The notes beneath the pieces are model-generated. The model searched no databases. It was given only the letters and a program-made list of their open reading frames with translations, and was not told the origin of the DNA. Of a DNA stretch of 63,025 nucleotides, positions 1-63,025 are shown in pieces (the first letter of the stretch is position 1; each line of letters begins with the position of its first letter). The DNA is from Girardia tigrina (taxonomy: Eukaryota), in NCBI GenBank assembly GCA_001938485.1, contig MQRK01246857.1, forward strand, positions 1 to 63,025, read 5' to 3'. Both the position numbers and the translations under genes were made by a program.

Positions 1-453
1 TAAAAATTTTAAGTATTGAAATAACCTTACTTTGCCCATTCTGAATGTTAATTGATGGGTTGTAGTGTCTTATTAGTAGAGATTCACAAAACTGTCGTTC
101 GTAATGTGAATCAAAATTAGTAATGTGAATCTCTACTAATAAGACACTACAACCCATCAATTAACATTCAGAATGGGCAAAGTAAGGTTATTTCAATACA
201 TAAAATTTTTAATTAAAATACTTTTGCAATTATTACCCAATAATATTTTCATAAATAAAAATGTTTAATTTCTTCTTTACCTTTTAAAGTAAATTATATT
301 TATTAAAATTGTGAAAAATTGTATTATTCAAACAATTCAATAAACAATTGCTGATGATGATGTATATAAACATCGACACATGTCCAATAGTTGTATAAAA
401 AAAGCTTTAATCAAATTATATTTTCGAAATACTAAACTTGCGTTCACAAGACT

Positions 454-456
<3 letters not shown>
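1..456 (+). mobile_element. Penelope-like retroelement 3' end (family A) with inverted partial repeat
   Basis: 124-216 translates CESLLIRHYNPSINIQNGQSKVISIHKIFN*, similar to the GIY-YIG tail at 62585-62670. 1-88 is its reverse complement. Hammerhead motif at 347-388; abuts (AT)n. Confidence 0.75.
347..388 (+). ncRNA. Minimal type I hammerhead ribozyme motif, one core substitution
   Basis: attg-CTGATGA-T-GATGT(atataa)ACATC-GAcA-CATG-TC|caat: perfect stems I and II, palindromic stem III loop, GUC site; GAAA reads GACA. Confidence 0.75.
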
Positions 457-510
<54 letters not shown>

Positions 511-511
511 A
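457..511. repeat. (AT)n(GT)n microsatellite
   Basis: Seen directly. Similar tracts at 15296-15346, 37227-37348, 40343-40384, 44847-45005, 46320-46373, 51746-51942, 54897-55054. Confidence 0.95.
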
Positions 512-1600
512 TACGTGGTTCATCCAATAAGTACGCAAGCTGACAAAGAAAGCGAAATGCAAAAGAGCCACTTTTAGAACACAACAAGCATGAAGGTATC
601 ATTAATGTCGATTGTGCTCATAATTTAAATTTTCCTACACACATCTGCCAAAGAATAATCAACTGAGAAAACGCTTTTTTGAAAAATTCTAGGAAAGATG
701 CGGCGAAGAAATCCTTCATGGAAATCTTTAAATCGTCTTTTGATCCAAACTGTGGCTTCTCAATTGCTTCTTTACGTGTCAGAAGAGGTATAAATCTCTT
801 AGTGTCAAATCTGGGCTGTACAGTGTAGGATCTATAAGCACTATTCCAGCACCTTCAATTGTGGCCCAAGAAATACTTTCTGTATGCATTGGCACCTTGT
901 TGTGAAGAAACCATAAGGGCGTGTTCATATGCTTCCGTCTATTCTTTCTGGCAAATGCCACGATTTAGCTGTAATAGTCCAAATAGATGGGAATGTCTTT
1001 ATCGCGAAATACATGAGAATAACAAAAGTATGATTCCAAAAAATCGAAAGCATCATCACTCGTCAATGACTTGTCCCTGTTCGTATCTTCAAAGACTGCT
1101 TCCACTCTGCCGACTGACGCTTTGTTTCCGGAAAATAGATACTAAGTGGGGTTTGATCCTTCCTAATTAAATTTGACAGGAAAGTCTTACTATGATAGTC
1201 CCACAGGTTTAAGTTATCTTGACTGTACTCCAAGCGGTTTGGCATCATTTTACAAGTCAAGAAGCGGGATACAAATCTGGAGAACAGTTTTCTAATACCA
1301 ATAGATTTCAATTTGATGTGGGCCGTACCAACACTGATGTTGAACTTTGTTGACATCATTTTCGTGGTAATTTGACTCTCTTCTTGGACCATCTTCTCCA
1401 ATTTTTCATCAACTGTGTCAAAAATGTCTTGTGACCGACCGAATTTTGTAGATCAAAGACAAACCACATTTAATCGCCCTGAAAAAATTTTTATCAGTGG
1501 TCAGGGATATTGAGTCGAATAGGTAAGTTGACTGCAGAAGATAGTAGATGTCACTGCACGTATTCTTCTGCAACACAAAAAAGCTTGAAAACGTTGCAAT
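512..1600 (-). mobile_element. Degenerate mariner transposon
   Basis: ORFs 1063-1401 (KLFSRFVSRFLT, cf. WVPR motif) and 779-961 (LHNKVPMH..LYSPDLTLRDLYLF, cf. HDNA..H / YSPDLAP.D). TIR-like end at about 512; other end not found. Confidence 0.75.
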
Positions 1601-4070: not shown

Positions 4071-4586
4071 CTAAAACTTTAAATATTTTAATATAGTATA
4101 TTAAATTATTCTATTGAAGTCGAATTCAAGCAATCAATCTATAACAATACTTTGAAAATATTTAAGTAAAAACTATTAAATTCTAGTTTATTTATAAAAA
4201 TCATTTATATTTATTTAAATATCGAAATAATTACGGCAAGCTATTTTTAAAAGACGACCAACTCACATCAGAATATGGTGTCACCAATTTGGACGGATTC
4301 CGTTATATTCCTACAAAATCAACTATTATACAATTTAGGAATTACGAACTGTATATCATTTCGGTATATAATTGATGATATAAAAATACTTTCAATAAAT
4401 TTGAAGAAGATGGTGTTCATACATTGATTTTAGGACCATAAAATTTTATCATCAATGCTTTACACTCTCTGACATTCATCAATAAACCATGAAAAAAGAA
4501 TTTAAACAATCATCCTGATCAATCTATTCATAAAATTAAATTGTAAAGCGTAATCCAGATGAAGTATTGGAAAATGAAGATTATTA

Positions 4587-11153: not shown

Positions 11154-11346
11154 CTCCAGGCCTTACTATGATAGGAAAGGGATCACTAACTGGTCCAGGA
11201 CCAGCTTTATTAACGGCATTGACCTTGATATGATATGTTTGACTGGTCATGAGGTCTTTTATGTTAACGTAGGTACGAGATGTTTCTGATTTTTGCCATT
11301 GATTTATTGGCTGAATCGCTATCCGTGTATAGTAAACATTGTAACC
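11154..11346 (-). CDS. Lar: Exon of LAR-like RPTP gene; C-half of second FN3 domain
   Basis: Acceptor ttttacag|, donor |gtaaaa; 193 nt, phase 0-1. Encodes GYNVYYTRIAIQPINQWQKSETSRTYVNIKDLMTSQTYHIKVNAVNKAGPGPVSDPFPIIVRPG, which completes the domain begun at 41582 (cf. LAR GYRVYYT...W...L....TY..KV.A....G.GP.S). Not in the ORF track. Confidence 0.85.
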
Positions 11347-11639
11347 CTGTAAAATTATTTAATATTATTAAATTTTTCAGAATACCAAAAAGATTAATTA
11401 ACGTAATAATTCAATATTAAATTGAAATTGATCAAACAAGTAAACTGAGTTATCTATTATAGTATAGATGTTTAATTATAGTTTTACATGCCAGGTGTTG
11501 TGAAAGGACTTTGTTGAATTTTGACACTAGATTTAAGGATTTTAAGCTGATATGTAGCATTTTATTTGTATTTGGTTCAGAGATTATAATTATTGAAATT
11601 TTTTTTAAAACTAAAACTTTGATTTTTAATTTTATCAAT

Positions 11640-12050
11640 ACGGTGTACCATGTCTTACGCCTAAGGCCGTCAAAATGTTATTGAAGAATAAAACCGTATT
11701 TTTACAACCAAATACAATTAACCACCATCTTCATCAGATGTGAATCCTCTAGATTACTTCATATGGGTGCTTGTAGAGAGGGAAGCATATCGTTCTCGTC
11801 AAATACGTGTCAATGTCTCAGGGAATTCCGTTGCAAAGATCTAATAGAATCTGCTATATTCGTTCGCGTTGAAAGCCTATGTCGCATTCAGAAAATGGCT
11901 GGAAGTCATTGTGCATGAGGGAGGCGATCACTTAAAGCAGTTCTATTTACTCGAATCTTTTATATTTTGTAGAATATGTTTTGTCTGTTTGAAGTGCTTT
12001 TTTCGACCACAATTTCACAACATCCGGTATTTTTTAATTGATGATCTCTA
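11640..12050 (+). mobile_element. maT/DD37D-like transposase 3' relic
   Basis: PPSSSDVNPLDYFIWVLVEREAY at about 11722-11790. Confidence 0.6.
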
Positions 12051-12190
12051 AAAATAAATAAATAAATATTAAAAGATAAAAAATTACTTAATCCTAGTCT
12101 CATCAAATATGGGTCATAATATGAATCTATGTAAGATTCTTTTTTGGTACAATACATTTTATATTGAAAATGTACAATGTCTACCTTATA

Positions 12191-13044
12191 CTAGGTTGTT
12201 TAAAAAATAATGTCGTTTTTTAACCTTAATCTTTGAAGACAAATATCTCAGCGTAGAATCAACTTTATTAATCGAAATAAAAACCGTTAGCATCAATACC
12301 CTTTTGCCAACGCTGAACAAGTTTATTTTTCTGGAGGCGATGAAATCGTTGAAGGTAGTTTTAGCATCCCCTTTATTTTTGAAAAATAAAGGAAAAAATA
12401 AAGGAGGAAAATGTCAAGATGTTTGAAAAAGTGATAATCAGTAGGCGAGAGGAGAGGAGAGTATGGTGGATGACTCAAAATTTCGTAGTCCAGTTCGTTC
12501 AATAGTTGCATTGTCAGGCGTGCGATGTGTGGCCGAGCGTTGTCATGGAGAAGAATAGGCCCCTTCTTATTGACTAATGCTAGTTATTGTTGTTAGAGAT
12601 TCTGGTTCATTTTAACAATTTCCTGAAAGTATCTCTCTGATGTAATTGTTTCTCCTGGATTTAGGAAGCTATGATGAATAACACCGGCTGCAGACCACCA
12701 AACAGTTACCATCATCTTTTTTGGTACGATTTCGGCCTCGGAAATGGTTGCGGGGCTTGATCGTGGTCCAATCATTGAGAAGAGGGTCTCCGATTGTCGT
12801 AGAGAATTCAATTTTCATCACACGCTACAATTCGGTCCAGAAAGGGATCATTCTTGTTCCGCAGAAGAAGTGAAGACGATGCATAAAAACGACGCATTTT
12901 TATTGTCATTTAATTCGTATGGAAGAGTTTTTCATAAGCTTTAAAATTATGTATAAAACATAAATAAATGATAAAGATTTATTTCAAAACATGATCAAAA
13001 ATCAGGACCATTCAAAAAACGACATTATTTTTTAAACAACCTAA
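12191..13044 (-). mobile_element. Internally deleted mariner (cecropia/Hsmar1-like)
   Basis: TA TSDs; TIR (t)taggttgtttaaaaaataatgtcgttttt at both ends; MVTVWWSAAGVIH, HDNARPH, HPPYSPLLSPTDYHFF. Confidence 0.9.
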
Positions 13045-13360
13045 TATAAAAATGTTAAAAAAAATTAATTTTATTTTTAGAGTATGCAAATATTCATATT
13101 CTGAAAACGGGTTATGTTTGACCCAGTTTTGGTACCCAAAGTTTTAAAATTATTTTTGTGTAGCTAGAGTGAATAAATTGCAATTCATTATTTAAAAAAA
13201 GTCATTAAATCTTGACAAATATAAAAGTTCCTTTCTAGCTTAATTATATTTGTTATTACAATCTTCTATTTTACTGAAAATGATCAAGCAGTATGAGAAA
13301 GATATATTTTGTCCACCATAACAGGGTTTCTTCTTGGATCTCTTTTTCCTAACTAGTTAA

Positions 13361-15008
13361 CCGTTTACATGCGGACCACATTAAACCTTTGCATTTCGTG
13401 TTAAAACTTTTAAAACAATCTATATATGCTCTAACTAAGAAAATTATGTGGTTAAATCGGCGACCCAATCAATACCGAGAGAGAAAAATAGGTGTCCTTT
13501 TTATAGGACAGCCGTATTATTAGAGTAATAAACTTTTTAATACACAGCAATAATATAAAAAACACGCATCACTAAGCTATTGTGGGCGAGTGTGGTATGC
13601 ATGAAAGCAAAGAGGATGAAGAGTTACAGAACACTGAATGCACTTAAATTTTGCCTTCTGGTGGCATTCTGCACAGCGCAGTTGACGGTCGATGGACGCC
13701 GGAAAATGATTCCAACCTTGAAATCGACGAACAGGCACAACAACAGGTTGATGACCAGGATTTTTGCGACGTACATAAAAATTATCAGTATTTGCGTTCA
13801 TTAATGCATTCGCGACATCTCGGCGAAATTGTAAGCGAGTCATAGGATGTTCAACTGCTTTTCGATGCAAAATCCATGCATTTGTAACACAGACGTTCAG
13901 AAAATGAGTTAGAAACGGAAAGTACCATTTTTTTGATTGAATTGATGGCCTGTAGGATGCTAACAATTTATCCATGACGTCTACACCGCCCATGTGTTTA
14001 TTGTACGTGCCAAACAGAAAGGGTTGTGGAATCTGCGTGTCAAGAAAAACAAAAACTTTAAGTAATGTTTTCCATATATATATTTTTTATATGTAACTTA
14101 CCGTAATTCTTTTCTTCTCTTTTGCAGACCATCATGTGCATGTGGATTCTTGTAATGGACCTTCAAAATTAGATGCTATACCAACAGGGCTATTGTCGTG
14201 CCATTTGACAATACAGATATTGTTGCCACGCTCAGTACATGTCTCATAAAAACCTCTCGGTTTTTTCTTCATTTGTGCATGGCTCTGAAGAGGCGCCTGG
14301 CAAAAACGGTTTTCTCTGATGGTTCCACTAGCTCTGAAACCAGCTTCTCTCAGATCAATGAGGAGTTCAGGGCTTGTAAAGAAATTATCGAAAAAGACCA
14401 TGTGTGAGGATGGATGCGGGANNNNNNNNNNNNNNNNNNNNNNNNNNNNNNNNNNNNNNNNNNNNNNNNNNNNNNNNNNNNNNNNNNNNNNNNNNNNNNN
14501 NNNNNNNNNNNNNNCACATCGCCCAAAATAAGGTACCATACTTTCGTCTATAGACAAATGTTCAGAATGAATTCCCCAACGTAGAATGTTTTTTTTCATC
14601 AGGTCAAGGAATGGACGAATTTTTGTGAGCCGGGTAGTGGCATCTAAGTTACCATTGTCTCCTGCATGCAACCATTTCTTTATTTGTAAGTAGCGATCAC
14701 GCGGTAGAGAAGCTTGCACAACGGGAACAGATACATCCTCACTTCTCTCCCAGTACATTTGCTGACTGGGCNNNNNNNNNNNNNNNNNNNNNNNNNNNNN
14801 NNNNNNNNNNNNNNNNNNNNNNNNNNNNNNNNNNNNNNNNNNNNNNNNNNNNNNNNNNNNNNNNNNNNNNNNNNNNNNNNNNNNNNNNAAATGAATAACC
14901 CCGTCCCAAAATTGTTCAAAAATCTTGATTGGAGGCAGGTGACCAATCTCTTCACAAAGTGATTCACATTTTTCCTGGACATACCGTGATGATGTTTGTG
15001 GGATTTCA
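13361..15008 (-). mobile_element. piggyBac transposon, 5' part missing, intron-containing transposase with premature stop
   Basis: TTAA|ccgttt terminus; SIDESM, FFDNFFTS, YNKHMGGVD catalytic motifs; C-terminal Cys-rich domain; GT-AG intron 14033-14101; TGA at 14132. Confidence 0.9.
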
Positions 15009-15292
15009 TTCCCAGCTTGGGGTACGTTTACCCCTAGTGGTACGCGAAAGGTTGCTTAGGGGTACTCAAAAAAAAGTATTATGACGGAAAATGCAATTCA
15101 AATCTAGCCTAAAAACTAAAAAATCTTTTAACACATTGCAAATGGTTATCTTATTATATTAAAATAATTAAGTAATAAGAAATAGTAAAGTATGCTGATT
15201 TTTTAAACACATTTTTATGGGCAAAATACTCGTCTTGAAAGTAAATATAATTGTATATCTGAAATTACTAAATGATTTCTTATTTATGTGTA

Positions 15293-15347
<55 letters not shown>

Positions 15348-15415
15348 TAGGTGTGCCCACTAAGTAAACAATCAGGTAGAGGGGTACTCTAATGAAAAAA
15401 GGTTGGGAACCCCTG
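15009..15415. mobile_element. hAT-Charlie-type MITE
   Basis: Right end aaaaggttgggaacccctg; left remnant ttcccagcttggggtac; internal ggggtac repeats. Confidence 0.65.
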
Positions 15416-15599
15416 CTTTAGGGTATCTCATGGACCCACTTACTCATTTCACTCTTTAACATTTATATGCAGGCACAGTTTCTCATCTATCGTGATGACT
15501 CGGTTGAAAAAAATTAATGTTTACAACGTGATTTGATGATATATGATAATTTTATGAAATTTGAAATCGAACTTTTAAAAAGTATTTTGTACAATGTCA

Positions 15600-16432
15600 A
15601 TTGTTGAAATGATATTATTTGTGATGATTCACTTTTACGATTTCTCGATTGTTAATATGGTCGCGATATTTTTAGAACGGGAGGCTCCTCTCAAATTTAT
15701 GGTGGATAATTGCGCCACATTTTACGCGAAAATTTTGTGGATTTAATGAATCATTGGAAGCTGAAGTTAATATATCGGTTTATGAATTGGTCCAGTGCTA
15801 ATGGAATTGTTGAGAAAAATCATAGAACAATCAAGAAAATTGTTGCTAGATCAAAAATATCAATAGTTGAGGCGCTCAGGTGGTAAAATAACACACCGTC
15901 TGTTGGCAAAGAAATCCCAAGTCGGATGTTATACAATTATAGGGGTATTAGGTCTAAAGACATAGCGATGGGAAAGAAGGATAAAGCATCAGATAAGGAC
16001 AGAGTACCAGTTGGAATGGGTGAAACCGAAAATCACCACAAGTTGCAACCAAAAATGGTTAAAAGAGACGGTAGGATTGGAAATATTTGGTTGAGTGTGG
16101 GGATGCACGTTTTCCTAATCATATCAGCGATTTGCGACCGAGAAGAGTTGATCCATTAAATCAGACGCATCATACAATCGAGACTGAGTCCATTTCAGAA
16201 AACAATAAGTTGGAAACCGACAGAGACGTGCGCGTTCGAAGGAGACCGAAATACCTCGATGATTATATCACGGAGTTAGATTCGGATGATGAATCCAGTC
16301 GGAGAGTGGAGATGAATTAAATTAAAACTATGAAATGAAAATAAAAGAAAGTTAGTTTAATATGGAAAATTGTGAGAATTAAATAAATCTGGGAATTGGG
16401 GTTGTTCTATTTTTTTCCATATCGTTATTACA
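15600..16432 (+). mobile_element. Gypsy integrase 3' relic with PPT and probable 3' LTR
   Basis: IFLEREAPLKFMVDN, SANGIVEKNHRTIKK, VRRRPKYLDDY. Purine tract ggagagtggaga is followed by a TG...CA segment at 16313-16432. Confidence 0.7.
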
Positions 16433-17528
16433 AATGTTATACAGAACATCATGATCCATAAAAAAGACGATTGTTAATAAACAAATTTATTGATTCGGTT
16501 TTAAAATTTTATAAATAATTACGATGTTGAAACTTTTGAGATGTAGACAATTAATTGCGCCATTTTTTAATGAAACTTACTATATAAAATATCAGGTAAT
16601 TTAGGATTAAAAAATAACAAAAAAATGTGTTTAAATATATTTATTTAGTATTTCTCAAAATATTAATCACACATTATTATAAATTGACATTTTAAAAATG
16701 TCATTTCAAAAAAAAAATTAAAAATTAATAAAAGATATTGAAACAAAATTAAACAAAATAATTTTGCAATTAATTCATATATTTAATTTTAAAATTGTTT
16801 GATATAATAATTCTAATTAAAATATATTTTATTTTTAATCATAATTGTCAGAATTAAAAGCTTATTTAAAACGATTTATTTGATTGATAGCAATTATTTT
16901 TAATGATTTAATAAAAATAAAAAAATTCAAGAGAAAAAGAAATAAAAATAATTATTTACACAGTGAAATTAGTTAAAAAATAATTTTTTATTTGTAAAAC
17001 TTTTTTTAATTGAGATAAAATTATTTTAATAATTTATTTTGTTGTAGTAAACTAATTTAATACAAATCTAATGAAAGAAATTTGAAACTTTAAAAAATAG
17101 AAAAATATTTTCAGTATTTCTATATTACAAAACATAATTAAAAGATTATAAATGAGAGAAAATGAAGAAAATCAAGTTTTAATATATAATATATTACTTA
17201 TTGTTAGACCAGAAAAACCTTACAATATTTCAACACAGAAATTATAATGTTTTTATTATTAAATTGAATAGTCTTGGTTTACGTTATGTTTTGGGTTACC
17301 AAAACATATTAAATAAGAAAATATTTTTAAAAGAATCATAGATAAGAGAACACATAGATCTAATGATTTCTTTTCTGAAGAATAAAAAGAGGTACAAAAT
17401 AATTAGATTCAAATTAAATTTATAATTAAAAATGATGAAATAAAAGACAATTAGTGTACCCTTTCTAACATTATATTTATTTATGGAAATCAAATTTATA
17501 ATTAAATGATTAAAGTTAATTAAATAGT

Positions 17529-20500
17529 TGTTGTGAAAGAGAATATCTAATTAAGAAAAATATATTTGACTTTACAATAATGATTATTAAAACAACACAC
17601 ACATTAAAATACATTAATATTTACATAATTATTCCACACTCGCCCTGTTCGACAACTTAATTTCTGTATCTTTTAGGCTTCTGTCGGTCTCGAACTGGAT
17701 TGCGTCTCACTCTTGTTTCATTAATATTCCAAAGATCTTCCTCTGGCATCTGGTCTTCTTCATGTACATCATGATGATCATTTTTGATACTTTTTGACAT
17801 AATTGTTGTAGCCTTTTCTGATTTTCTCGTGTCATTTTGTGGTGTTCTCAATCTTTTGATATCCACTACATTTCTCTCAATTATTCTTCTATCACTAATC
17901 ATTTTTAATCTGTACGCATACTTCCCAGTTTACCGATCACCGCATATGGTCCTTCGTATCTCGGCATATCTATTCCTTTGATTCGCGGTAATATCCTAGC
18001 CAGCACTAGATCACCAATTGCCAGACAACCCCCTGAACCTAATGTAGCTGGCTTTTTGATTTCTTGTTTGGTCTTGATCTGTTGGCTCACCACTTGTAAT
18101 ACTTGTTGAAGCTCTGTGATATATTTGCAATAGTTTCCATCATTTGTTGGATTCACTTTCTTTTCCGAGTAGAAAGACCACATTTTCCGACCAAAAATCA
18201 CCTCGAAGGGAGAGAATCCAGTGCTTCTACAAATTGTATTTCTTAGTCCAAATTCAACAATCGCCTCTTCCCATTCACATCCAGATGACTTCGCTGTTGC
18301 GTAAAGCATGTCTTTTACTGTACAAAATAGTGTCTAAATTACCCCGTCACTTTGAGGATAATATGGTGAGCTCCGAGATTTTCTAATTCCAAGAAGAGCA
18401 CAAAGTTCCTGTACGATCTCGCTCTCAAAAGCAGTCCCTCTATCTGAGTGTATCCTGTCCAGGATTCCAAATTGCACGATCCACTTGTCAAATATGGATT
18501 TTCATATCGTTTTCTCAGTCATATTTCTCAGCGGTATCGACTTATGGTATTTTGAAAAGTTATCAATAATTCCCAAGATGTATCTACCTCCATTTTTACT
18601 TTCCAAACCTCAAAAACTCCCAATGTCCTTTTCTAGTAATAAACTCTATTTTCTCTCTATCACACTCTGCAAGACTTATGTTATAATATCCTGCAGCCAA
18701 ATCAATTGAACTAAGGTGTTTCGCTCCTCCCAAGGTATCAAAAAGTTGTTGTGCGTCAGGATTTGGAAATGATGGAACATTAGTCTTTTGATTTAGTCTC
18801 CGGTAATCTACTGTAAGTCGAATATCTTCGTCCTTTTTTGGCACAATCACTATAGGAGCGTTCCACTCTGATAGACTTGGTTTAATAATATTTTTCTGTA
18901 GCAACTGTTCAACAAACTCATCCACTTTTTCTTGGTGCGCCACAGGAATTCTCCTTGTTTGCTCCTGTATCGGGCCATTATCTTTAAGCTCTATTTTATG
19001 CTCAGCGTTCCGCGCCAAGCCTATATCATATTTAGACCAACTAAATAAGTCTCTGAATTCTTTCACTAAACTAATAATATTGTTTCTATTGCTATCATTC
19101 ACACATCTAAATTGGGATAAGAGACACTCACTTTCAGGCGCTTCTGTTACAGTCTGAGTCTCATAGGGCACATACTGCTTCCGACTCCTCAAACAGTGCC
19201 CTTTCAGTTTAACTAATTTGTCGGGACTGTCGTATCTGCATTCACCTTCGAAAGGAATGGAACGAAAATTGTTCAACTATTAACGCCATTATTATCGAGA
19301 TCAATCTTAATCCCAAGACTCTTCATGCTCCGTATCCAAAGAATTATATCCGGGCTCAATCCATCCACAACAAAGAAATTACAACTTCTCCCTTTAGCAC
19401 CCAATTCAACTATCAGGGATTCTTCCGCTCGTACAGGCACTGTAAATCCATCTGCACACTTGATTTTTCTGGATGAACGTCTGGTTTTCAATGTTTTATC
19501 TGAATCTTGCAACTCCATTAGCATGTCTTTGCTGATAGCATTCACTTCGGCTCCGGTGTCTAATAAGATATTTTTACTCTTCCCATTGATCCGACCGTAA
19601 CACATTGGTTTGTTCTGATCTTTTACTTTATAACTGCTCTTCTTTACTCGAAGATTATTCTGTTCCTTTTGTTTCGGAACTGTTTCTTTCACCACTCTGG
19701 CATACAACTTCTTTTCATTTGAAATATGACAAATGCTCGGTTCTTCCGTACCTGTTCCCGTGTCTGTTTCACTTTCATTACTGGATATACTGGCAGACTC
19801 GACCACATGGACTGATTTACGTTTTCCGTTTAGACAAAACTTATCTATATGTCCCTTTTTGTTGCATGTTTTGCAGAATCGAGACTTTTTACAGTCTCTC
19901 AAAATGTGACTGCTGCTCCCACAATTCCAGCATCCACTTGTTTCTTTGACAGGATTTCTCGTTCTATTATCGCCTTTCCATTGACTTGATTGTCTTTTTT
20001 GCTTCAGCCCTTTTACCGTTTCCTGTAATGAGGTAATACGTTTGTTCAGTTCTGAAACTTCATCCCTAAGCATTCGAATTTCATCATTCTCGGCCAGCAC
20101 ATTTACTGTTGCCGACATATCCTGAGTTACACATTCTTTTTTTTATCATCTCGAATGCTTCATCCAAAGTTTTAGGCTGCAATACTTTTAGTGCCTCTTG
20201 AGCTCTGTCATTCATTAAACCATTTATAAAAACTTGGAGAGTTTTTGGCTCTCTTTCTTCGGAGGTCAACTCCGGTAATTCTTTAAAACAACGAATTCTT
20301 ACTTCTTTCATAAACTCCTTCGTTGACTGACCATCCTTCTGTCGAATTCCAAATAGTTTCATCCACGATGAAATGTCTGACTTCTTTCGTCCGAACAACT
20401 TCAAAAAGGTTTCCTTGAGCCATTCGAAACTCTTTTGGTTTTGGGTGTAACCACTCTGCGACTTCAGAAAACATTGAACATCTTCCTCCAAGTATTCCAT

Positions 20501-20820
20501 GAAGAAGTCAGTTTGTGTTTCATCCGATATTTCAAGTTGCCGCATAAATGCATCCATACATTTCAAAAATTGGGCAGCATCGTCCCCTTCTTCGAATGTT
20601 TTCGGAGTTTTGGCGGAGTCCTTTTTCAGGATTCTATTCAAAATTACTTCCAGTAATTTCGACTGGTGATCTCCACTATCGGCTTTGATCCTGCTCATGA
20701 CGCCACTGTTGTGAAAGAGAATATCTAACTAAGAAAAATATATTTGACTTAGAATTTACAATAATGATTATTAAAACAACATACATTAAAATACATTAAT
20801 ATTTACATAATTATTCCATA
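17529..20820 (-). mobile_element. Ty3/gypsy LTR retrotransposon, both LTRs present, internally deleted pol
   Basis: LTRs 17529-17638 and 20707-20820; 5-bp TSD ATAGT; PBS tggcgtcatgagcaggat. Gag with two CCHC knuckles, protease LLDTGA, RT N-part (WNAPIVIV, VDYRRLN, IDLAAGY) joined directly to integrase core (IDNFSKY, HSDRG, PYYPQSDG). Confidence 0.95.
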
Positions 20821-21239
20821 ATAGTTTTAGTTTTTAATAAAAAAATATTTATATTTTAGAATTTTCTGAGGTTTCATTGACATGATTTTTCAAAATCAAG
20901 TTACCCTACGTTATGTGAATATTATTGATAATCATCTACCTTTTTAAAAGACTTAATATATTATTAGAGAATGTAAAACATAATAAGATATATTGAGCAT
21001 TATTATAAGACATTATTAAACCCCATTGTACAGACCAAAACAATAAATTATATTAATATTTAGAAATATAAGTACACATTAAAATCATATATTTTTATCT
21101 AAAACAAAAAAAAAATCAGGTTGCGGTCTCAACACACAGTTTTCAAAAAAAATAAATTTAGAAATCAATGGTGACATTTGAAAACTATTGCTGTATAGAA
21201 TGAAAAAAGTTTATTCTGATTTATCACAGAATGATGGCC

Positions 21240-21480
21240 TAAAGTAGGGCATTTCGGTTACGAAAAGTAACAACACGTCCTCTTAGTTGTATTCAAATGC
21301 GCGGATGTTGTTCCAATGCCGTTGAAGAAGAACTGCCAGAGTTCTTTTTGGAAAAGCTAGATGCTGTGCCGGATTGTTCATTGTCAATTTTAGGAGCCCC
21401 CTACCCAAACGAGATTGAATAATTCCCTGTCTTCCCACGACCAAGAGAGTTTCAACAACCAACGGGGTGTCGCTACAGCG
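21240..21480 (-). mobile_element. CRE/R2-like non-LTR retrotransposon 3' relic (restriction-like endonuclease tail)
   Basis: PLVVETL...SRLGRGL...LAFPKRTLAVLLQRHWN resembles the PLAVETLG.WG...LG......FL.QRLSVALQRGN tail of REL-endonuclease elements. Confidence 0.55.
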
Positions 21481-22059
21481 CACCGTTGATTTACTGTCAA
21501 CATTGATATATATATATATAATATTCATTATATATACATATATATATCATTTAACCTCTTCGCACCGAAAGTAAATCTTTTTTGGCATGGAATTAGCAAA
21601 CACAGTGATAGCAAAAATTAAACTTAGTCGCCTTCGACGATTTACGGTCATAACCGGTTCTTCAACCGGATATTGCTGTAAATCAAGCCACAATTCAAAG
21701 GAGACCAATCTTTTTAAAGACGAAGAACTTTATAGCTGATAAGAATGAAAGAGAATTGAACAACGTCAACAACCGAGACTATCTATATCATCGCGAGAAC
21801 CTGCATTAATCTCCCACATGAGATCTTCAAAGTCATTATCTCGTCCCCAGTGGCTAATCTGATTTTCACTCTAGAGACCGTTATAGAGTCTCCTTATACT
21901 TATTATATGTTGTTAAGCCCCTACGTCCGAACCTCACCTGGAACCAGTATGATAGCATTAGTGATACTGCACTTAATTTTAAATTTACCTTACTTTGAGA
22001 AGTAATGAATCAAACGATTTTAAAACATAACTAGTTTCTGATACTTATGCTCTTAAGAT

Positions 22060-23250
22060 CACACAACCGAATTTGTTCACCTATCATACTGGATCACCGA
22101 AGGTCTGATTTTAGCTCATGGACTTGAAGTTCAAGAGCATGGGGATTAAGGTGCTTATTTCAATATCTTCTCGGAACCATTCCGGCAGATCAGTCACAAT
22201 CCATAGAATCTCTTCTTGCTGAGATTGTGCAACATTCGAAGCCATACATTCAACTACGGAAACCAGTTATGATGGTTCACGAACCGACATTGGATGTCGT
22301 CTTTGAAAACTATTTCAAGATGCAGTAAATCGGTCTCACAAAGCCATCACAGAGTCTTTAGCGGGTCATAACTGACTTGAAAACGACCTAACCCGGGATC
22401 ACGCAGGATTAAAACAACTCAATTTTGAAGAAATTCTTCACACAATGCACAAAGCGATTCTCACAGTTACTATCTCAACGGACATGAGGGAACCTTTTGA
22501 TTTTGCAGACCAGATCGCTGAAACTGTTCCATTCATTACAAACCATTGTTTTCAGGTTACCTAGACCTCAATGGACAATACTGAATAGCCACCACCTCAA
22601 CAAGGCACACAGAGTACTGCTCTCACGGCTCAAAAGGATCAAATGGCTGCCGTTATTTCCGCCCTAACGTCCAGCATTGCGTCTCTAATAACCAAACTGC
22701 ATGCTCGGCAACGCAGCAAGGGTCATTTATCACCAAAGGTTTTGTCAAAACGGCAACGAATGGAAGGGGAACCGCACCGCACTACAGATTGCATATTTTT
22801 GCATTTTCCATTTCAAGTATAGTTAGAATGCTAGATCGTGCTCTCCAGGCAGCAAATTTCAGTCCACAAAAATAGTTTCACCGTCTATCAAAGCAGCAGA
22901 TAGAAGAAGTGAGGACAGTTGCAGTGGATTATTCACTTCATCTGCACATATCTCGAATTCGCCAATTACAGTTGCATCGTTCTTAGTAGACACCGGATCC
23001 ACGATATCAGTCCTGTCTTGCAGTTTTCAGAAGCAAAACTATCTTAATTCCAGACCACTCATAGCCTAAAATGGATACGCTGTCTACACAAACAGGACAA
23101 TTCAACTGTCGTTCTTATTGATACAACTGGACATGAAGTTTCAATAGAAATTTAGAGTAGCACACGTCATTCAGCCCATTCTAGGTGCAGATTTTTTAGA
23201 CAATTTAGACATCCTCCTTGACTACCGAAATTTAAGATTTCTTCACAATG
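22060..23250 (+). mobile_element. Degenerate gypsy gag-protease relic
   Basis: TGSPKV*F, CIFHFKYS*NARSC (cf. CWYH.KFG..AR.C), FLVDTGSTISVL, PILGADFL. Confidence 0.75.
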
Positions 23251-23906
23251 AAGTTACATCGGATTATTCAGCCAAGAGTAGGAATTTTAGTGTCATCCAT
23301 ACTATTCATGCACCGCAGTAAAATTTTATTGAGAAAATCAAGAACAGGTTTCCAAATGTTCTTGTCTGATCTACCCAGGCTGATCAACCTAGTATGTATT
23401 TTTGCAAGTTATCGTTACTCACAGCTGTGTTCTAGTTCAATAGCGCTGAAGAATATTGTCACAAGACAGACGACTATTAACCGTAGCTCAGTCTTTTCCC
23501 CGTAGGCGAATTATAGTCACTTATAGATTGCCGCCACCAAACTTTAATCCATCATTATGCTTCGCATCTTTCTTTGAAGGCTGATATAGTGACAAAAAAA
23601 TTAAATCATATTAATATATATAAATGATATACAATATCGTCTGGGGGCTACAGAAGCTGAGACAGTAAACGAAAAAATGTAAAAACGTCTGCAATAAGAG
23701 GCAACTGAAAAACATTGAGGCTAAATAATACGCATGAATACAATTGCATTGAGTAGTATAGATTCGTTACCAGAAGAAAACAAAAAAATCCTAAATACCA
23801 TTAACCTATTCAAATAAGCAATTTTAAACTTAAAAAAAAATCATATTCTATCAAATTTCAAATATATAGTCATAATTATAGTCAAATATATATAGTCATA
23901 TCCCAA

Positions 23907-38500: not shown

Positions 38501-39509
38501 TTATGAGCTATCTGTTTGTTTGTGTACATGTAGTCATGGAGGTGTTCTTAAAGAATATTTAAACTATGATCTGCGATTTTAAAATTGAAAGACAAATTAT
38601 AGTCTCTATTAAATACTTTATCGGGCTTAAATTCGTCTTCAGCCTAGAATTCATTTTAATTAATTGTGTAAGTATAAACCGTTTCTGAATAATTTTATTT
38701 ATTGTTTATTCATGCCAGAATATCCAACAAATACGTATCACTTTTACAACTACACCTTAATATACTGAAATAAAAGTGCTCTAAATTGGAAAAGATTATA
38801 TAAAAAATATTTTAATTCTACAAGATCGGTTAACTAAATACAAATAAAATTAAAAAAAAATAATAAAATCTTTTTAAATCAACAAATATTATTACTAAAA
38901 ATTATTTACCAAAAAGAAATAAAATAATTTTTTTAATTAAACAAAAAAGTAAATTAAGACAAATTAAACAGGAAAAAAAGTTAAAATGAAATAGAAAAAA
39001 AAACTTTTGATAATTATAAAATTTTCCAATATTTTCAAAAGACAAAAAATATGAAAATTTCCAATCATAATAAAAATTATTTCATGACCCCTAAAAATAA
39101 AAATCTATTTGAGATTTTCAGTTGTTGATTAAACAAAATTTTTTGGAAAAACATGTGAGAAATTTTTGATTATATCCGGAATGTTTGATAAAAGGAATAA
39201 CTTTTATGTGAAGGAAAATCTAAATTTAAATAAGGAAAAAATATTTTTTTCAAGTATTTTAATTTCCAATTTAGATATGTAAATATTTGATATGTTTATC
39301 GACTTTTAAAGTGGAATTAAAGTAAAATGTTTTATTGGAAATAATATAAGACAAAAATAATCTTAGCTTTAAGACCATGACTTAATCATCGCAGTCGAGG
39401 AAAAATAAATATTATTTTTATATTTAAAAGTTTAGAAGAACTTCAAATTAATTTAGGTATACTTTTTTCTTATTTTTCAATAAAAAATTAGTAATTTATA
39501 ATATAAAAA

Positions 39510-40190
39510 TAATTTAATGTGGGCTTCCCATCTCTTTAGAATGGTACTGAGCCACTAGGCTTTTTAGAGAGTACACCCAAACTAAAGTGTGCTAGCTGCC
39601 CCCGATAGGCCTCCTGCGGAGTCGAATCGCTTCAGTGGACTTAGCACAGGCGCAAAAGGGACATTTGAACTCTCCCCTCGCTGTTGAGTCAGTGATCCTA
39701 AAGGTAAAGTGCGTATCTTCGGGATTAATCTTTCGCTCCACCACCATTGAGATAGTCGGAGGTTCTGTCGCTAACCGAGGATTGGTAGTTGGTATATCCT
39801 GTGGTGTGTCTGCTTCCGTTGTATTGCTTCTTTCATTTGTTGCACTTGTTGTCAGTTGAATTTGATTTTTTTCCTCTGTGTTTATGTCTACTCGGTGATC
39901 CTTATTCAGATGTCTTATTAGTCATCTTCTTGTCTTATAGCTTTTGTTGCATTTAAACTTGTTAGCTACGTCCGGTTCTTCCTGATCACATCTCTATGTG
40001 ATCCCTCTTCATGTGTCTGTTATGTTCCTTTGCTTCCGCAAACTCTTTGAAGCAGTCGTCTATAGGGCATTGAATTATCTTCTCTCTCGGACAGATAAGT
40101 TTAGGTAAACTTGTTGTTGCCCTTTCCGATCATCCTTTCCTAATGAGTCCAGCTATGTATGTGCTCTGTGAAAAAGTGGGGTCTAGGTGA
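39510..40190 (-). mobile_element. GC-richer relic encoding C2H2 zinc fingers, probably N-terminus of an R2/NeSL-like non-LTR element
   Basis: IQCPIDDCFKEFAEAKEHNRHMKRDH, FKCNKSYKTRR*LIRHLNKDH, FKCPFCAC on the minus strand; no RT seen. Confidence 0.5.
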
Positions 40191-40339
40191 AAAATGTTTC
40201 ATGATCGACTTGGATCCATTCTAAACTTTTGTTCAGACTGATTCCTGAAGAATTAGATGGTTTTTTAAAATTATAATTGTCAATTTTCTTTTCTTTTTAA
40301 ATTGTTTCCAAAAAGCAAAAAACCTGATACTTTTTGCGC

Positions 40340-40384
<45 letters not shown>

Positions 40385-40386
<2 letters not shown>

Positions 40387-40990
40387 GTATGTATGAAAAA
40401 TAATTTATTTCAAGCTTCTTTAAAAAATAATTATTTGAAAATTTTCGATGTTTCATACGTCATCACCAGCTATTATAATTTGTTACTTAAAATATTTAAT
40501 TATTAGTTTAATTAATGGCAATTGAAATAAATAAAATTTAAAATTTTTAAAAATTCATTTTATTTTATTAGAATATTTTTTGTTATTATTGGCAAAAGTT
40601 TTATTTATTTAATTAAAGATTTTAAGAATCGAATTTCAAGGCCCTATTAAGCCTATTATTAATGTAAATAATTTGGTTTTATTAGAAATTATGATTTGCA
40701 GAACTATTACTCAAATGCAAATCAAAGCTCTTCTCAAAGAAATGCAATACATTAATGATCAAGAACCTTACTCTATTGAATTTGTGAATGCTCAATAATT
40801 TAGATTTATGGTCTCTGCAATATACGAATATGTACACATGTGAAAATCAAATTTTTAAAACCAGATTAGCTTGCAATCTACAAATTGTTTTAGATTTATT
40901 TGAAAGGAATCTTTGAACGATAGGATGTCATTGGACCCACTTTGACAATATATTTTCCAACATTAGTTTTAAATGCTCGATAAAGTAAGG
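40385..40990 (-). mobile_element. Penelope family A relic with degenerate hammerhead (about 40436-40476)
   Basis: Ends ILKIFN*; g-CTGgTGA-T-GACG(tatgaaa)CATC-GAAA; abuts (TA)n at 40343-40384. Confidence 0.7.
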
Positions 40991-40994
40991 TATT

Positions 40995-41290
40995 CAATCT
41001 GGTCGTCCAAGGTCAACCAGTCAAAGAGACGACAGAAAAATTTTACAGGAGGCTAAAAAACCTCTCATGTTACAGCAGTGCAATTTTGCAGTAGGCTGTC
41101 CTAGCACTTGCAAACCGTCAGCAAATGGTTAAGCTTACGGAGGTCTCAGGTCATCAAAACCAGCCAAAAAACCAATGCTATATGCAAAAAAATATTTCAG
41201 ATCGTGTTGCCTTCTGCAAGCATCATGAGCATTGAACTACAAGCAGTGGGACTGCGTGCTTTTTAATGACTTGATCAATGGATGCTTTGT
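40995..41290 (+). mobile_element. Tc1 transposase N-terminal relic
   Basis: SGRPR, GLRSSKPAKKPML, W..VLF.D-like motifs. Confidence 0.55.
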
Positions 41291-41481
41291 AAGAATACAG
41301 CAATAGAATATTACGAGCAGCAGTTCTGTGAATTCTTTTTATGTAATTTATATTAAGATTACCATAGTAGTTACATAAAATTTAATTATATCAAATATCA
41401 TTTTTACAGAATAAAAGCATAGTGTTCTTCTTTTAAATTATATAAATAATATTTCTTAAAAAATAAATCTTGAAATTTTAC

Positions 41482-41582
41482 AGTGATAAATCCATTTGGC
41501 TCAAGAGGAGGGGCCCATTTGACTGTTATTGACGTGGTCGTATCTGCATAGGCAAAGACTAGTTGAGGTGGCGAACTTGGAG
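41482..41582 (-). CDS. Lar: Exon of LAR-like RPTP gene; N-half of second FN3 domain
   Basis: Follows a 104-nt GT-AG intron (41583-41686); 101 nt, phase 1-0. Encodes PPSSPPQLVFAYADTTTSITVKWAPPLEPNGFIT (cf. LAR APSSAP..VQW..P.EPNG.I); donor gtaaaa. Not in the ORF track. Confidence 0.85.
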
Positions 41583-41686: not shown

Positions 41687-42010
41687 GAAGTTCTTTTGTT
41701 TGAAAAGATATGGATTTTGTTGGATCAGAAATTCCAAGAGCATTACTTACAGCAAGAACTCTCACAGAATATGTTGTATATGGCTTTAAATCTGTTACAT
41801 TTTTTACAATTGTTTTGTTATTTAAAGGCCATGGATGAATATTTGGTATTTGCTTCAAACCAAGAGCACCTAATTCGCTAGAGGTTTCACTAAACATTAA
41901 GGTATATGAATCTGCAGGAGCCTCTGATTCTGGGTTTTGTTGCCAAGAAATAAGTGCATGAGTTGATCCAACATCCAAACATTCTACTTTTATTGGTATT
42001 TTTGGTATTT
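41687..42010 (-). CDS. Lar: Exon of a LAR-family (type IIa) receptor protein tyrosine phosphatase-like gene; first FN3 domain
   Basis: Acceptor ttttgtaaatttag|, donor |gtaagt; 324 nt, phase 1-1. Encodes IPKIPIKVECLDVGSTHALISWQQ...VTDLKPYTTYSVRVLAVSNALGISDPTKSISFQTKEL with the FN3 W/L-P-Y-Y pattern. Resembles FN3-1 of PTPRD/F/S from memory. Confidence 0.85.
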
Positions 42011-42689: not shown

Positions 42690-43060
42690 ACTTGTATCTA
42701 ACTTTAGTGTAGAAGAACGAGGAATTGATAAATAGGTGTATTAGTTGGGATTGTTGGGATCTTATGTAGGAGGTTTCACAATAATTCGGATCTTCTATGA
42801 GAAGATTGATTGTTTATTTAAAAAGAATGATTCTACTATTATAGATTATTTGAGTTGTCAATTTTTAGATAAATTTAAAGCGTTTAGTGCATTTTTCTTA
42901 ATTCTTAGGAAAACTGAAATAGATTTATTTTAATCCAATAATTTACTGGTAAAATGGTATTTAATTATTGCATGTTTCCAGTTATTAGTTTCTATTAATT
43001 ATGTACATGGTGTGGATTGACCTGATGATGAGATTGATTTTCGAAGCGCATTTTTTTCTT
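42690..43060 (+). mobile_element. Penelope-like family C relic with degenerate hammerhead (43016-43055)
   Basis: VY*LG..GSYVG GIY-YIG-like motif; ttgac-CTGATGA-T-GAGA..TTTC-GAAg-CGCA; homologous to 46490-46670 and 49095-49155. Confidence 0.6.
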
Positions 43061-46611: not shown

Positions 46612-46665
46612 GGATTGACCTGATGACGAAATTGTTATCTCGAAATTTGTAGTCTTCTGTTTAGT
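46612..46665 (+). ncRNA. Type I hammerhead motif, core intact, stems partly decayed (family C)
   Basis: gac-CTGATGA-C-GAAAT(tgtt)ATCTC-GAAA-TTTG-TA|gtc; 3-bp stem I, one stem II mismatch, GUA site. Confidence 0.6.
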
Positions 46666-48811: not shown

Positions 48812-49214
48812 TATATACTCGATTTCGATGATTCCGATGTGTTAATATCGAATAATTTTGAAAGTTTTAAAGGACATCAGTGACACGGAAATTTTATATC
48901 ATGGGAAAAAGAGTTGTTCTTTGGACCAGCAAAGTCAAAGCTGCCAAGTGGTTTTTGCCGATGACAATATTACAAGAAAAAATCTTAATGCAACAATCAT
49001 ATTATCTTCAGTTATTGTAAAAGATAAGATCGTATATCCGAGTCACAAGAAACGAAAATAATTTATAGAGATAACAATCTGAATTTGTGCTAGTTTAGTA
49101 CATGGTGTAAATTGACCTGATGATGAGATTGTTTTTTCAAAACGCATCGTTATTTTAACTTTAGATTATAAATTAAAAAGATTATAAATTATAAAAGATT
49201 ATAGATTATAAATT

Positions 49215-52679: not shown

Positions 52680-53400
52680 ACAAAAATTAATTTTGACGGT
52701 ATAACCGTAATCCTCAGGTCATAAAAAATATGAATTTAAAATCTGTCGATAGAGTCAAGCAGTGATTATGCAATCGACGAACAATTATGTAATCTAAACA
52801 CACACAATAAGGTTGTAGAGAGACCGTTCGTACAATAATCTTAAAATATATAACGATTTGATATGTACTTTACAGGACACTGCATCCAAATACCTTATTT
52901 TCCGGTAGATAACGCGCACCGTTATCTATACAAAAATGTTAAATTTTGCCAAAATATGAACTGTGAATCCTGTACTGGTGATAACGATGTATACATCTTA
53001 GGTACACCACCATGCCTGCTATGTGCGTTATCTATATTTAAAAAGGTATGCCAAAAAGTAAGAGCTGCGCGTTATACAATATGTGCACGTTATCTACCGG
53101 AAAATAAGGTAATTATACTTTAAAATAAACTTCAAAATTATTTATATTAATATTTTCATTTAATTTGCAAACTTTTCTGTGATCTGCATTATTACTTCCA
53201 CACATATTACTTCTATGTTCTTAGATTATCCTACAGAGATGACGAGACGTTTCTGCAATGCATGTGGCATTGCACTCACTACATGTAAATTGATATACGT
53301 GCTCCGAACATAATCAAAAGAAGGTTGTAAATTTATAACAAATTACAATTTGTATTTTATATGATTGCGATATTATTTTGAAATACTATTATTTTATTAT
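52680..53400 (-). mobile_element. Penelope family B relic with degenerate hammerhead (52683-52722)
   Basis: LCSEHVYQFTCSECNATCIAETSRHLCRII*EH matches the GIY-YIG at 62585-62989; shared gtgattatgcaatc; gac-CTGAGGA-T-tACGG(ttata)CCGTC-aAAA-TTAA-TT. Confidence 0.8.
52893..53109. mobile_element. Tc1/pogo-type MITE nested in the Penelope relic
   Basis: TA|ccttattttccggtagataacgcgcac ... gtgcacgttatctaccggaaaataagg|TA. Confidence 0.9.
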
Positions 53401-60384: not shown

Positions 60385-60966
60385 TGAACTTCAAACAAAA
60401 TGCCCTTGCTAAGGGTATTTTCCATGTCTCACCTGAAGCAAAATGGAATCAGGTTAACATTCCTGAACTTGAATACAGACATTTTTTTATTTCGGTAACA
60501 CAAGCGATCTCAGAGACGTCATCGAATGGTTTCGGGAAGAGATCACTTTTCTTTGTATACGGACCATGTCAATAGAATCAGGTTATCTGGAGAAAGGGAT
60601 GGGAAATGTCAAAAGCTTTGTGGTTCTTGTGGTGTCCGAAGGGAGCAGTTATAAATTTTCGCAGGTCTTCAAGGTGAGCAGCCTATAGTCTTATAACAAT
60701 GTAGGTAAGGGAAATCGGCAAATTAGATCCGTAGCTTCGGTAAAAGGATTGACGCTAGGAACCGGGTATGATGAACTTTATTAAGAAGTTGGGGTGTTTT
60801 GATTCTGTTTCTTCGAAACTTGAGATGGAGTTGAAATGGAACTTTTTCGACTTGATTGATCGAGGGTTAGACAATGATTTACGAGATTTCGGATTCATGG
60901 TCGTCATCGTACAATTAACGGTAAACCTAGAACTGCATGGAATAGAGGAATCCGACTGTCTAATTG
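60385..60966 (+). pseudogene. 28S (LSU) rRNA fragment, D7-D8 region, decayed
   Basis: ggaatcaggttaacattcctgaac, cgggaagag..cttttctt, cgcaggtcttcaaggtgagcagcct, aatgtaggtaagggaaatcggcaaattagatccgtagcttcgg, ggaatccgactgtctaatt; internal deletions. Confidence 0.88.
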
Positions 60967-61239
60967 TTTTATATAATGTTTTATCAAATAATTAATTATT
61001 TTATTGTAGTAATTATTCTTTTAATTTTTAAACTTAATCATTTTACTTTTGAAGTTCATCATTGGTTGTAATTAGATAGAAACTTGGTTTTTTAACCAAA
61101 ACATTTGATAAATGTATACTTTTTGAAGTCAAAATAATAAATACAAATTTTTATTTAACCTATACATACTTATACACGAGAATTCAAATGAGAAAAATAT
61201 TTACTTGTAAATATTTTATATTGAAAAATATCAAGATCT

Positions 61240-62160
61240 AAACAAAAAATGCCCATAATTTTATTGATGCTGATATGGAAGTTCTGCCGCACATTTGGTT
61301 AGTTTTTTAAAGACACATCGAAAATAACCAGAACAATCATCTGGAGTAGTACTTTTAACCTCTTTTATTATCATGTCTTCAAGTATTCCCTTTTCTTCAA
61401 TACTCAAACTAATTCTGATCCTTTTTTTATTTTTGAGAATGCATTATCAGTTGGATCGAGCATGTAGGAATATGGAGACAAAAAATTGAAAAAAATATTA
61501 AACTGGTTCACTATTTCATGAATTTCTGTAGATTTATGTATCCTTGCATTATAATGGATCAAACATGTCCCTTCCAAATAAAGTTCATCTCTTAAAAAAC
61601 AGCTTATAAATATTCTTTGAAGATTATTGCATTAACAGTGGATGCTGAAACAGTTTTGCAACGCAGCATCCCAGAAAAGCTTTAACTTGCTAATAGTGAG
61701 AAGCTGCTCCCCTGAAAAGTCGGCATTATCAAGTTGGCTCTCTTGCCTTCCTTTAACTGAACTTCAGTTCTTGTAATATGTAGATTAAAATAACTTTCAT
61801 CAATAAAAACAAACTTGGAATAGTCATTTCAAAAAGTACTATTAAACCAAAGCGAATATGCTGTACGAATCAAAGTCTTTTCTGTTTTTCTATCTTCTCA
61901 GACTAATTTTTATAATAATTAAAAATTTATAAAATACGACTCCTACCAACTTTACCTTTGGGTTTGATTTTATATCTTGTTACTCTTACACTGTTTCGAT
62001 AATTTGTCTTCTGTAGATATGATTATGTATTAGTTTAAATGTTCTTACAATGTATGTTCCTTCATAGCATTTATATATTCCTTTTCAATATTTATGAATT
62101 GTAATGGTGTTTTGTGTCTATTTTTATGTAACCTTGGCATTTAATTCCTTTATCAGTCGT
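61240..62160 (-). mobile_element. IS630/Tc1-like transposase relic
   Basis: VFIDESYFNLH, YNARIHKS, FLSPYSYMLDPTDNAFSKIK. Confidence 0.7.
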
Positions 62161-62439
62161 TTAATGAAACCAAAACACAACATGCAAAAGAAATCAAACT
62201 CTTTATTCCTGGACAATCTCATTTAACATGTCTGAATATGTGATAGTGCCACGACTCATTTTTAGTGTGTTCTGATTTGTCTTTCTTCAGGAATAACATC
62301 GATACTCATTATTACTTTGATTTCCTTGATTTTAACCTACCTTCGACTTTACCCGTGCTCTACGTTTGAAAGCCTAATTTTTACCGCTTTTATAAAAAAT
62401 ATTTTACCTGACTTCTTATTTATATATGTCATCCATCTA

Positions 62440-63025
62440 TTAAAAAGTGAACGCCATTTTTCACAATTTATTTTCGTAATTAATTTCGGCGGATTATCCG
62501 CCATCTTCAAACTAAATTAACACTGGCTTTTTGCAGCTTATATATGAGAAAGGTGATTATGCAATCAATCATGTAATAAAGGCTCTATTTGAAAATGTTT
62601 AACAGAGAAGTTGAGTGTGAAGCTTGGATATTAATTTTTGGATCCATGAATCTTATTAAGAAGGCCTCACACGTTACTCTCTCCCAGTAATTTTTAAATC
62701 GATTACACAGAATTTTAAAATCATTTTCTCCGATTTTCTTTTTACATTTTAAATTATGTTCGGCAATATTGCTCCCATTATCCAACCGACTATGCTCTTT
62801 GATCCGTTTGCAGAGATGACGAAATGTCTCTCCAATGTATGTGGCGTTACACCCATTACATGTATATTTATAAACAAGATCGGAGCACAAACCGAGATGA
62901 GTGGGCGATTTATTACTGAACATATCACGAATTTTATATGATTGGGAAATAATTTTTAGATTCATGGTATTTGGGATCAAACTTTTCAAAATTGATGATT
63001 TTAAATGTTTAAAACCCTCTGAATA
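62440..63025 (-). mobile_element. Penelope-like retroelement 3' end (family B): GIY-YIG endonuclease and 3' UTR
   Basis: ORF 62585-62989 LVYKYTCNGCNATYIGETFRHLCKRIKEH...CEAFLIRFMDPKINIQ; runs off the window. Confidence 0.92.
62466..62516 (-). ncRNA. Minimal type I hammerhead motif, C3U variant
   Basis: tttagt-tTGAAGA-T-GGCGGA(taa)TCCGCC-GAAA-TTAA-TT|acgaaa then AATAAA, about 70 nt downstream of the GIY-YIG stop. Confidence 0.75.

Follow-up and report, generated by a model that had tools for sequence, protein, structure and literature searches.

Are intact hammerhead ribozymes tolerated in an intron only when they lie antisense to the pre-mRNA? The question arises from a 63,025-nucleotide stretch of Girardia tigrina DNA (the window; 29% G+C, 938 N), which is one whole contig (MQRK01246857.1, here G000:C246857) of an assembly that totals 1.43 Gb in 255,254 contigs, and in which nine hammerhead motifs lie probably within the minus-strand transcription unit of a predicted LAR-type receptor phosphatase-like gene. 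A sequence-only reading of the window had found core substitutions in all four minus-strand, host-sense motifs and complete cores in two plus-strand motifs, and had taken this pattern as a sign of selection against self-cleavage of a very long pre-mRNA. Other genes of this genome, sampled over 1.01 Mb, do not bear out such selection: 18 of their 40 sense copies have an intact core, as do 19 of their 46 antisense copies. Core damage follows the age of a copy, not its strand. We are confident of the following explanation: the nine motifs are truncated 3′ ends of Penelope-like elements within a LAR-type gene, and sense copies are no less often intact in the core, likely since a lone copy is inactive and decays neutrally.

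Core integrity by strand in other genes

A scan of the window with Rfam returned no hammerhead family at E≤5, and family consensuses were therefore built from copies in the genome itself. The genome was searched with four window motifs, giving 993, 655, 493 and 837 candidate places with 40 scored per search, and 15 family consensuses were built from genome loci and gene intervals. The intervals extend between same-strand exon-level matches of fn3, I-set, Ion_trans, Myosin_head, PDZ, Spectrin and Y_phosphatase; cadherin matches, which are mostly single large exons, were left out, as were interval end pieces shorter than 3 kb. Where opposite-strand matches or a two-gene order occurred, intervals were trimmed (C235672 and C213479) or dropped (C183641). 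The test sample comprises 45 intervals on other contigs, with 1,099,727 bases including 88,208 N (1.01 Mb). The family searches gave 97 matches in these intervals, and exclusion of 11 partial ones left 86 full-length copies in 33 of the 45 intervals, or about one per 12 kb of gene.

The two orientations are represented alike, with 40 sense and 46 antisense full-length copies (binomial p=0.59; 46 and 51 when partial matches are included). The difference in the fraction of intact cores given above corresponds to an odds ratio of 1.16 (95% interval 0.50–2.70, p=0.83). The sequence-only reading had itself named equal intact fractions in sense and antisense intronic copies as the outcome that would contradict it, and equal fractions are what the 45 intervals give. 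When core, stem II, palindrome and helix I are all required to be intact, 12 of 40 sense and 10 of 46 antisense copies qualify, and among young copies (divergence ≤0.12) the core is intact in 13 of 15 sense and 12 of 16 antisense. Core substitutions per site amount to 37/444 (0.083) in sense and 44/540 (0.081) in antisense copies. In a logistic model of core integrity the strand term is negligible (p=0.71), whereas divergence has a strong effect (coefficient −12). A strict descriptor that is blind to family finds 23 intact ribozymes in the 1.1 Mb of gene intervals, 12 sense and 11 antisense, and 0–1 match in each of ten Markov-resampled controls.

The result is stable to the choice of copies. 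At two tighter E-value cut-offs the core is intact in 17/34 sense and 18/42 antisense copies, and in 17/32 of each; the counts are 14/32 and 15/39 without seven lower-confidence intervals, 11/27 and 13/34 without members of inverted pairs, and 14/33 and 18/42 without four families seeded from single genic copies. Were the sense intact rate half the antisense rate, at least 18 of 40 would be seen with P=5e-4. The core-intact sense copies are spread over 14 gene intervals, and one wholly intact sense copy (G000:C173889:11895) lies between exons of a single domain (phosphatase profile positions 1–51 and 79–196); G000:C240283:22299 is a further natural copy that is wholly intact. G>A or C>T accounts for 31 of 85 core changes, and changes of the same kinds occur in four window copies. 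The core appears less changed than its flanks on both strands (ratio ∼0.6), without strand specificity, which is most likely due to detection requiring alignment of the core.

In the window itself, the contrast of no intact core among four minus-strand motifs with two among five plus-strand motifs gives a Fisher p of 0.44. Three of the four minus-strand copies are old (21–29% diverged), and their broken cores are therefore to be expected.

Motifs, families and parent elements

The nine motifs reported in the window are all present, at the places and on the strands claimed, and each matches a consensus derived from further genomic copies of its family (E 1e-12 to 7e-66). Named by the position of core residue C3, they are 351, 34017, 43022, 46620 and 49117 on the plus strand and 37412, 40469, 52717 and 62510 on the minus strand. 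With a relaxed descriptor eight of the nine are among the top nine matches, and 37412, which has two core changes, scores at background. A tenth copy near 4314 on the minus strand was missing from the earlier list. The copies and the remnants joined to them are:

1..211 (1–93 and 119–211), no strand assigned: inverted pair of Penelope endonuclease C-terminal remnants upstream of 351; inverted repeat 97%; tblastn 133–2, E 5e-4
347..388, plus: young CATG-loop hammerhead; A14C at 377 the sole core change, otherwise equal to the family consensus; closest copies 95–99% identical; antisense to host
4166..4465, minus: old copy of the 34017 family with the decayed tenth hammerhead (C3 near 4314); five core changes; E 3e-6
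33819..34143, plus: 5′-truncated Penelope-like copy; endonuclease C-terminus at 33820–33939, then hammerhead at 34010–34057
37377..37417, minus: old CATG-group remnant; A6U, G12A, palindrome lost; 28% diverged
40436..40474, minus: old CATG-group remnant; A6G, palindrome and helix I lost; 29% diverged
43016..43056, plus: old CGCG-family remnant; A15.1G, palindrome lost
46612..46657, plus: old CGCG-family remnant; 12 core positions intact; loop TTTG, stem II mismatch; 19% diverged
49111..49153, plus: old CGCG-family remnant; G12A, palindrome lost
52683..52722, minus: TTAA-loop remnant; G12A, first stem II pair broken; endonuclease remnant upstream at 53370–53164, E 5e-14
62418..63025, minus: young Penelope-like 3′ fragment; GIY-YIG open reading frame (ORF) remnant at 63025–62588, hammerhead at 62466–62515 with C3U the sole core change; closest copies 95–98% identical

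The substitutions that had been read in the four minus-strand motifs (A6U with G12A, A6G, G12A and C3U) are correct, as is A14C in 351. The division of the motifs into three families does not hold, as the nine copies best match seven consensuses and three is the count of loop-palindrome groups. Their ages differ: non-core divergence is 0.00–0.03 in 351, 34017 and 62510, and 0.19–0.29 in the other six. The families of these three copies are young, with best copies 94–99% identical, whereas that of 46620 is old (best 76–87%). The two TTAA copies on the host sense strand, 52717 and 62510, lie 9.8 kb apart, and both have core changes.

All 15 consensuses carry the core CUGANGA ... GAAA ... UH in type I order. 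An extra base between positions 9 and 10.1 and a G10.1–C11.1 pair are present, in part imposed by the descriptor that seeded the families; both also hold in family C, which was seeded by similarity alone. Stem II is fully paired but different in sequence in families 0, 1, 2, 8, 10, 11, 13 and C, and the covariation of stem II that had been noted between two families is confirmed from the consensuses. The consensus loops of stem III are palindromic (CATG, TTAA, TATA and CGCG), with 6-bp self-duplexes computed, and CGCG is, as had been supposed, the loop of family C. In the window the palindrome is kept in only four of nine copies (351, 34017, 52717 and 62510).

All 12 core positions are intact in two of the nine copies, 34017 and 46620. 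These are the two that had been called complete, and neither is a whole ribozyme. Helix I of the 34017 family has two pairs only, and in 34017 (core intact, TTAA loop) a G replaces the family's C two positions past the cleavage site, so that the pair at 34051 is lost and one is left. In 46620 the TTTG loop that replaces CGCG is not self-complementary (duplex +3.2 vs −7.5 kcal/mol), and stem II has a mismatch among its first four pairs. A wholly intact ribozyme is therefore absent from the window on both strands. Folding by minimum free energy, applied to window motifs both singly and doubled, failed to reproduce the hammerhead structure and is uninformative. A private fold-back as the end of the 34017 copy, at its cleavage site, was considered and rejected, as the downstream sequence is common to the family.

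The motifs are the 3′ ends of truncated Penelope-like elements. In many loci a motif that we take to be of the GIY-YIG type, from its visible Y..C..C...YIGET pattern, precedes the hammerhead by ∼360 nt on the same strand. Endonuclease remnants are found upstream of four window copies (351, 34017, 52717 and 62510), and none was seen upstream of 37412 and 40469; in family C the remnant is kept in one of 24 copies examined (L100, E 9e-12). At two loci, L014 (with YKRYVDD) and L190, a single ORF carries the C-terminus of a reverse transcriptase (RT) running into a GIY-YIG endonuclease. The Atlas clusters nearest to the L190 ORF are annotated HTH_animal (78–98% of members), GIY-YIG (13–26%) and RVT_1 (10–12%). 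Direct Pfam and NCBIfam scans did not recognise the endonuclease and RT fragments, and the assignment rests on the motifs and the Atlas lead. Same-family pairs on opposite strands less than 3 kb apart are divergent in 14 of 14 cases, and an inverted arrangement has been described for Penelope-like elements (PMC8557442); copies in L010/L027 are arranged in tandem on the same strand. Together, the consensuses and the upstream endonuclease remnants support the earlier identification of the motifs as minimal type I hammerheads of Penelope-like elements with palindromes suited to dimers.

The host gene and its other sequences

The host is, as predicted from its exons, a LAR-type receptor phosphatase-like gene on the minus strand, in line with the sequence-only reading:

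41687..42010, minus: host exon a; whole FN3 domain, phase 1 at both ends; Pfam fn3 E 9e-10
41482..41582, minus: host exon b; first half of the FN3 domain that exon c completes
11347..41481, minus: predicted intron of 30,135 nt, GT-AG, phase 0; divides one FN3 domain and contains motifs 34017, 37412 and 40469
11154..11346, minus: host exon c; carries the second half of that FN3 domain; top solved matches PTPRS, PTPRD and PTPRF; E 1.4e-10

The borders of exons a, b and c are GT-AG with compatible phases (1, 1, 0), the joins being predicted from sequence; sequencing runs that contain the exons exist. Exon c is closest to PTPRS and PTPRD, its top matches, at their residues 420–481, and the top matches of exon a are contactins, with PTPRF ranking fourth; a protein search with exon a as query among longer proteins was without match. 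Exon a, the most 5′ exon found, codes for the domain that directly precedes the second FN3 repeat. Above 42 kb no Ig or FN3 exon occurs in the 108 of 116 selected minus-strand ORFs scanned (at least 28 aa, GC at least 0.27, free of N), and below 11.2 kb no Ig or FN3 match occurs in 41 of 76; the remaining selected ORFs were covered by a general Pfam scan or lie within repeats, transposons or rRNA-like sequence, and no masked stretch is long enough to conceal three Ig domains. All nine motifs therefore probably lie inside the host transcription unit, including 52717 and 62510, whose position within the gene had been a supposition. The three Ig domains, transmembrane segment and two phosphatase domains of a LAR-type receptor were not found within the window and would fall on other contigs.

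Several other sequences share the window. Next to the 34017 element lies an intronless cis-prenyltransferase gene copy (32307–33818, minus; Pfam Prenyltransf E 5e-11), a dispersed repeat (other loci L222–L228) that is found on ∼40 contigs at 71–96% identity and keeps ORFs of 276–361 aa in some copies. It has the look of a dolichol-pathway gene of the host that was amplified by a mobile element carrying it as cargo. The window copy is interrupted by a 400-nt insertion (32968–33372), and its 5′ end is cut where the Penelope fragment starts (33819). That it travels with the 34017 element is unsupported: two of seven other loci match any family consensus, and neither matches that of 34017. Two copies labelled mariner-like by eye (45152–45857, plus; 49215–49921, minus) are 97–98% identical, internally deleted and inverted 3.4 kb apart; they flank motifs 46620 and 49117 and could pair in the pre-mRNA. 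A degenerate telomere-type array of ∼20 (GGGTTA)n units occupies 43497–43616 in the inferred intron.

On the host strand within the predicted upstream intron, a 168-aa ORF fragment (56099–56602, minus) resembles importin/exportin HEAT repeats (Atlas score 0.95–0.97 to Cse1-like clusters, below the reliable range) and may be a nested gene or another amplified fragment. Remnants of a long terminal repeat (LTR) retroelement at 17660–20728 (minus), with ORFs judged by eye to be Gag-, protease-, RT- and integrase-like, have the orientation of the host gene, and degraded fragments of eukaryotic large-subunit rRNA lie at 3261–3744 and 60532–60936 (both plus; E down to 3.5e-55). The genome at large contains many single-exon cadherin-repeat ORFs of about 850–930 aa, which suggests an expanded protocadherin-like family, and the assembly contains many near-duplicate contigs.

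Lone copies, pairs and known systems

The strand symmetry is readily understood if a single hammerhead of this kind does not cut. With helix III consisting of the 4-nt palindromic loop only and helix I of 2–4 pairs, a lone copy would be unable to fold into an active form; to judge from published work on this ribozyme class, cleavage would therefore need palindrome-paired copies. Positions A15.1 to U16.1 would form a 6-nt palindrome that pairs two copies, and one core would cut the UH site of the other. Cleavage would thus take two compatible copies, such as the tandem RNA of an active element provides, and an isolated intronic copy without a partner would leave the host pre-mRNA uncut and drift under mutation. 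The unit visible to selection would be the compatible pair. In published work a single minimal hammerhead shows no cleavage, while dimers and trimers cleave weakly (PMC4209133), and a review ties cleavage to tandem copies (PMC6765202). By analogy, lone copies of the present families are likely inactive.

Some observations pull the other way. The window itself leans towards selection by strand, as an age model expects 1.4 intact cores in its four minus-strand copies and the observed zero has a probability of ∼0.09. The young sense copy 62510 has a core change, and the young antisense copy 351 likewise. Unpaired copies lean antisense (34 vs 27 sense, p=0.44), and genes on the minus strand of their contigs contributed only 14 of the 86 copies (intact 3/7 vs 2/7). 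The sample covers 0.07% of the genome, with a power of 58% for a halved intact fraction and 19% for a 25% drop; its intervals are set by same-strand Pfam matches, not transcripts, and seven of the 45 could span tandem genes. Inactivity of the monomer is known from other species, not from these families. The probability of ∼0.09, the lean of unpaired copies and an odds-ratio interval that extends down to 0.50 are also what would be expected of weak selection against single sense copies, acting for example through trans-dimers between transcripts or protein-assisted folding and too small for this sample. We regard such selection as unlikely, since core substitution rates are equal on the two strands and most point estimates of the odds ratio are at least 1; old copies give 0.82, the set without self-seeded families 0.98, and young copies as much as 2.17. 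Far less credible is the strong form, in which intact cores persist only antisense to the pre-mRNA and sense copies self-cleave and are removed or inactivated. It draws on the none-of-four against two-of-five contrast in the window, which is not significant and in which both supposedly intact plus-strand copies have defects outside the core; elsewhere it meets 18 core-intact and 12 wholly intact sense copies, and it is refuted unless most of the 14 intervals holding core-intact sense copies are not single transcription units.

A further reading, which we consider possible though improbable, is that selection acts only on dimer-competent pairs, so that close, same-strand, palindrome-matched intact copies would cut the pre-mRNA and be purged from the sense strand while single copies are neutral. 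Dependence on dimers has been published (PMC4209133; PMC6765202), and according to a preprint, the main text of which never uses the word ‘antisense’, tandem hammerhead repeats are under-represented in Xenopus introns (10.64898/2026.07.22.740005). In our sample only one same-strand pair less than 3 kb apart shares a loop and has two intact cores; its members lie 600 nt apart on G000:C193787, in antisense orientation, and each of three sense pairs within 3 kb has at least one broken core. One pair gives no statistic, however, both cores are broken in four of five antisense pairs within 3 kb, and dimers too cleave slowly in vitro (PMC4209133). If this reading were true, a strand test restricted to pairs would provide population-genetic evidence for Penelope hammerhead dimer cleavage in living animals, and the genome, being rich in young copies, would allow it. 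The pair on G000:C193787 (near 38458 and ∼600 nt further on) consists of two TTAA-loop hammerheads of different families, antisense to a large Ig/FN3-repeat gene and each with an intact core, and is a candidate natural cross-family dimer.

Neutral decay of inactive lone copies remains our preferred account. The motifs themselves are an already described feature of animal genomes; what is added is a negative result, that intact Penelope hammerheads are as frequent on the sense as on the antisense strand of introns, and this symmetry agrees with the published view of lone copies as inactive. In literature that leaves aside most subscription papers we found no paper on strand bias of intronic hammerheads.

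In their type I topology, unpaired base between 9 and 10.1, G10.1–C11.1 pair, short helix I and small palindromic helix III, the copies resemble the minimal type I hammerheads described by Cervera and De la Pena in 2014 (PMC4209133), and as in that account the families are numerous and heterogeneous within one genome, most motifs are single and stem from truncated elements, and opposite-strand pairs lie a few hundred bases apart. They differ in the 15 new family consensuses, with a helix II of 4–6 pairs and a helix I of only 2–4, although the supplementary figures of that paper, with its family alignments and cleavage gels, might show these or related families. The parent elements are like canonical EN+ Penelope-like retroelements (PMC8557442) in that the RT C-terminus is followed by GIY-YIG in one ORF, with the hammerhead ∼360 nt after GIY-YIG, strong 5′ truncation and inverted partner copies, although the window is without a full-length element. 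Animal non-LTR retrozymes (PMC7229834; 10.64898/2026.07.22.740005), for which avoidance of introns has been reported in the preprint, likewise carry dimer-dependent type I hammerheads, related to Penelope pseudo-LTRs (pLTRs). Unlike those tandem non-coding repeats, the copies described here are dispersed, and four of the nine are still joined to endonuclease coding sequence.

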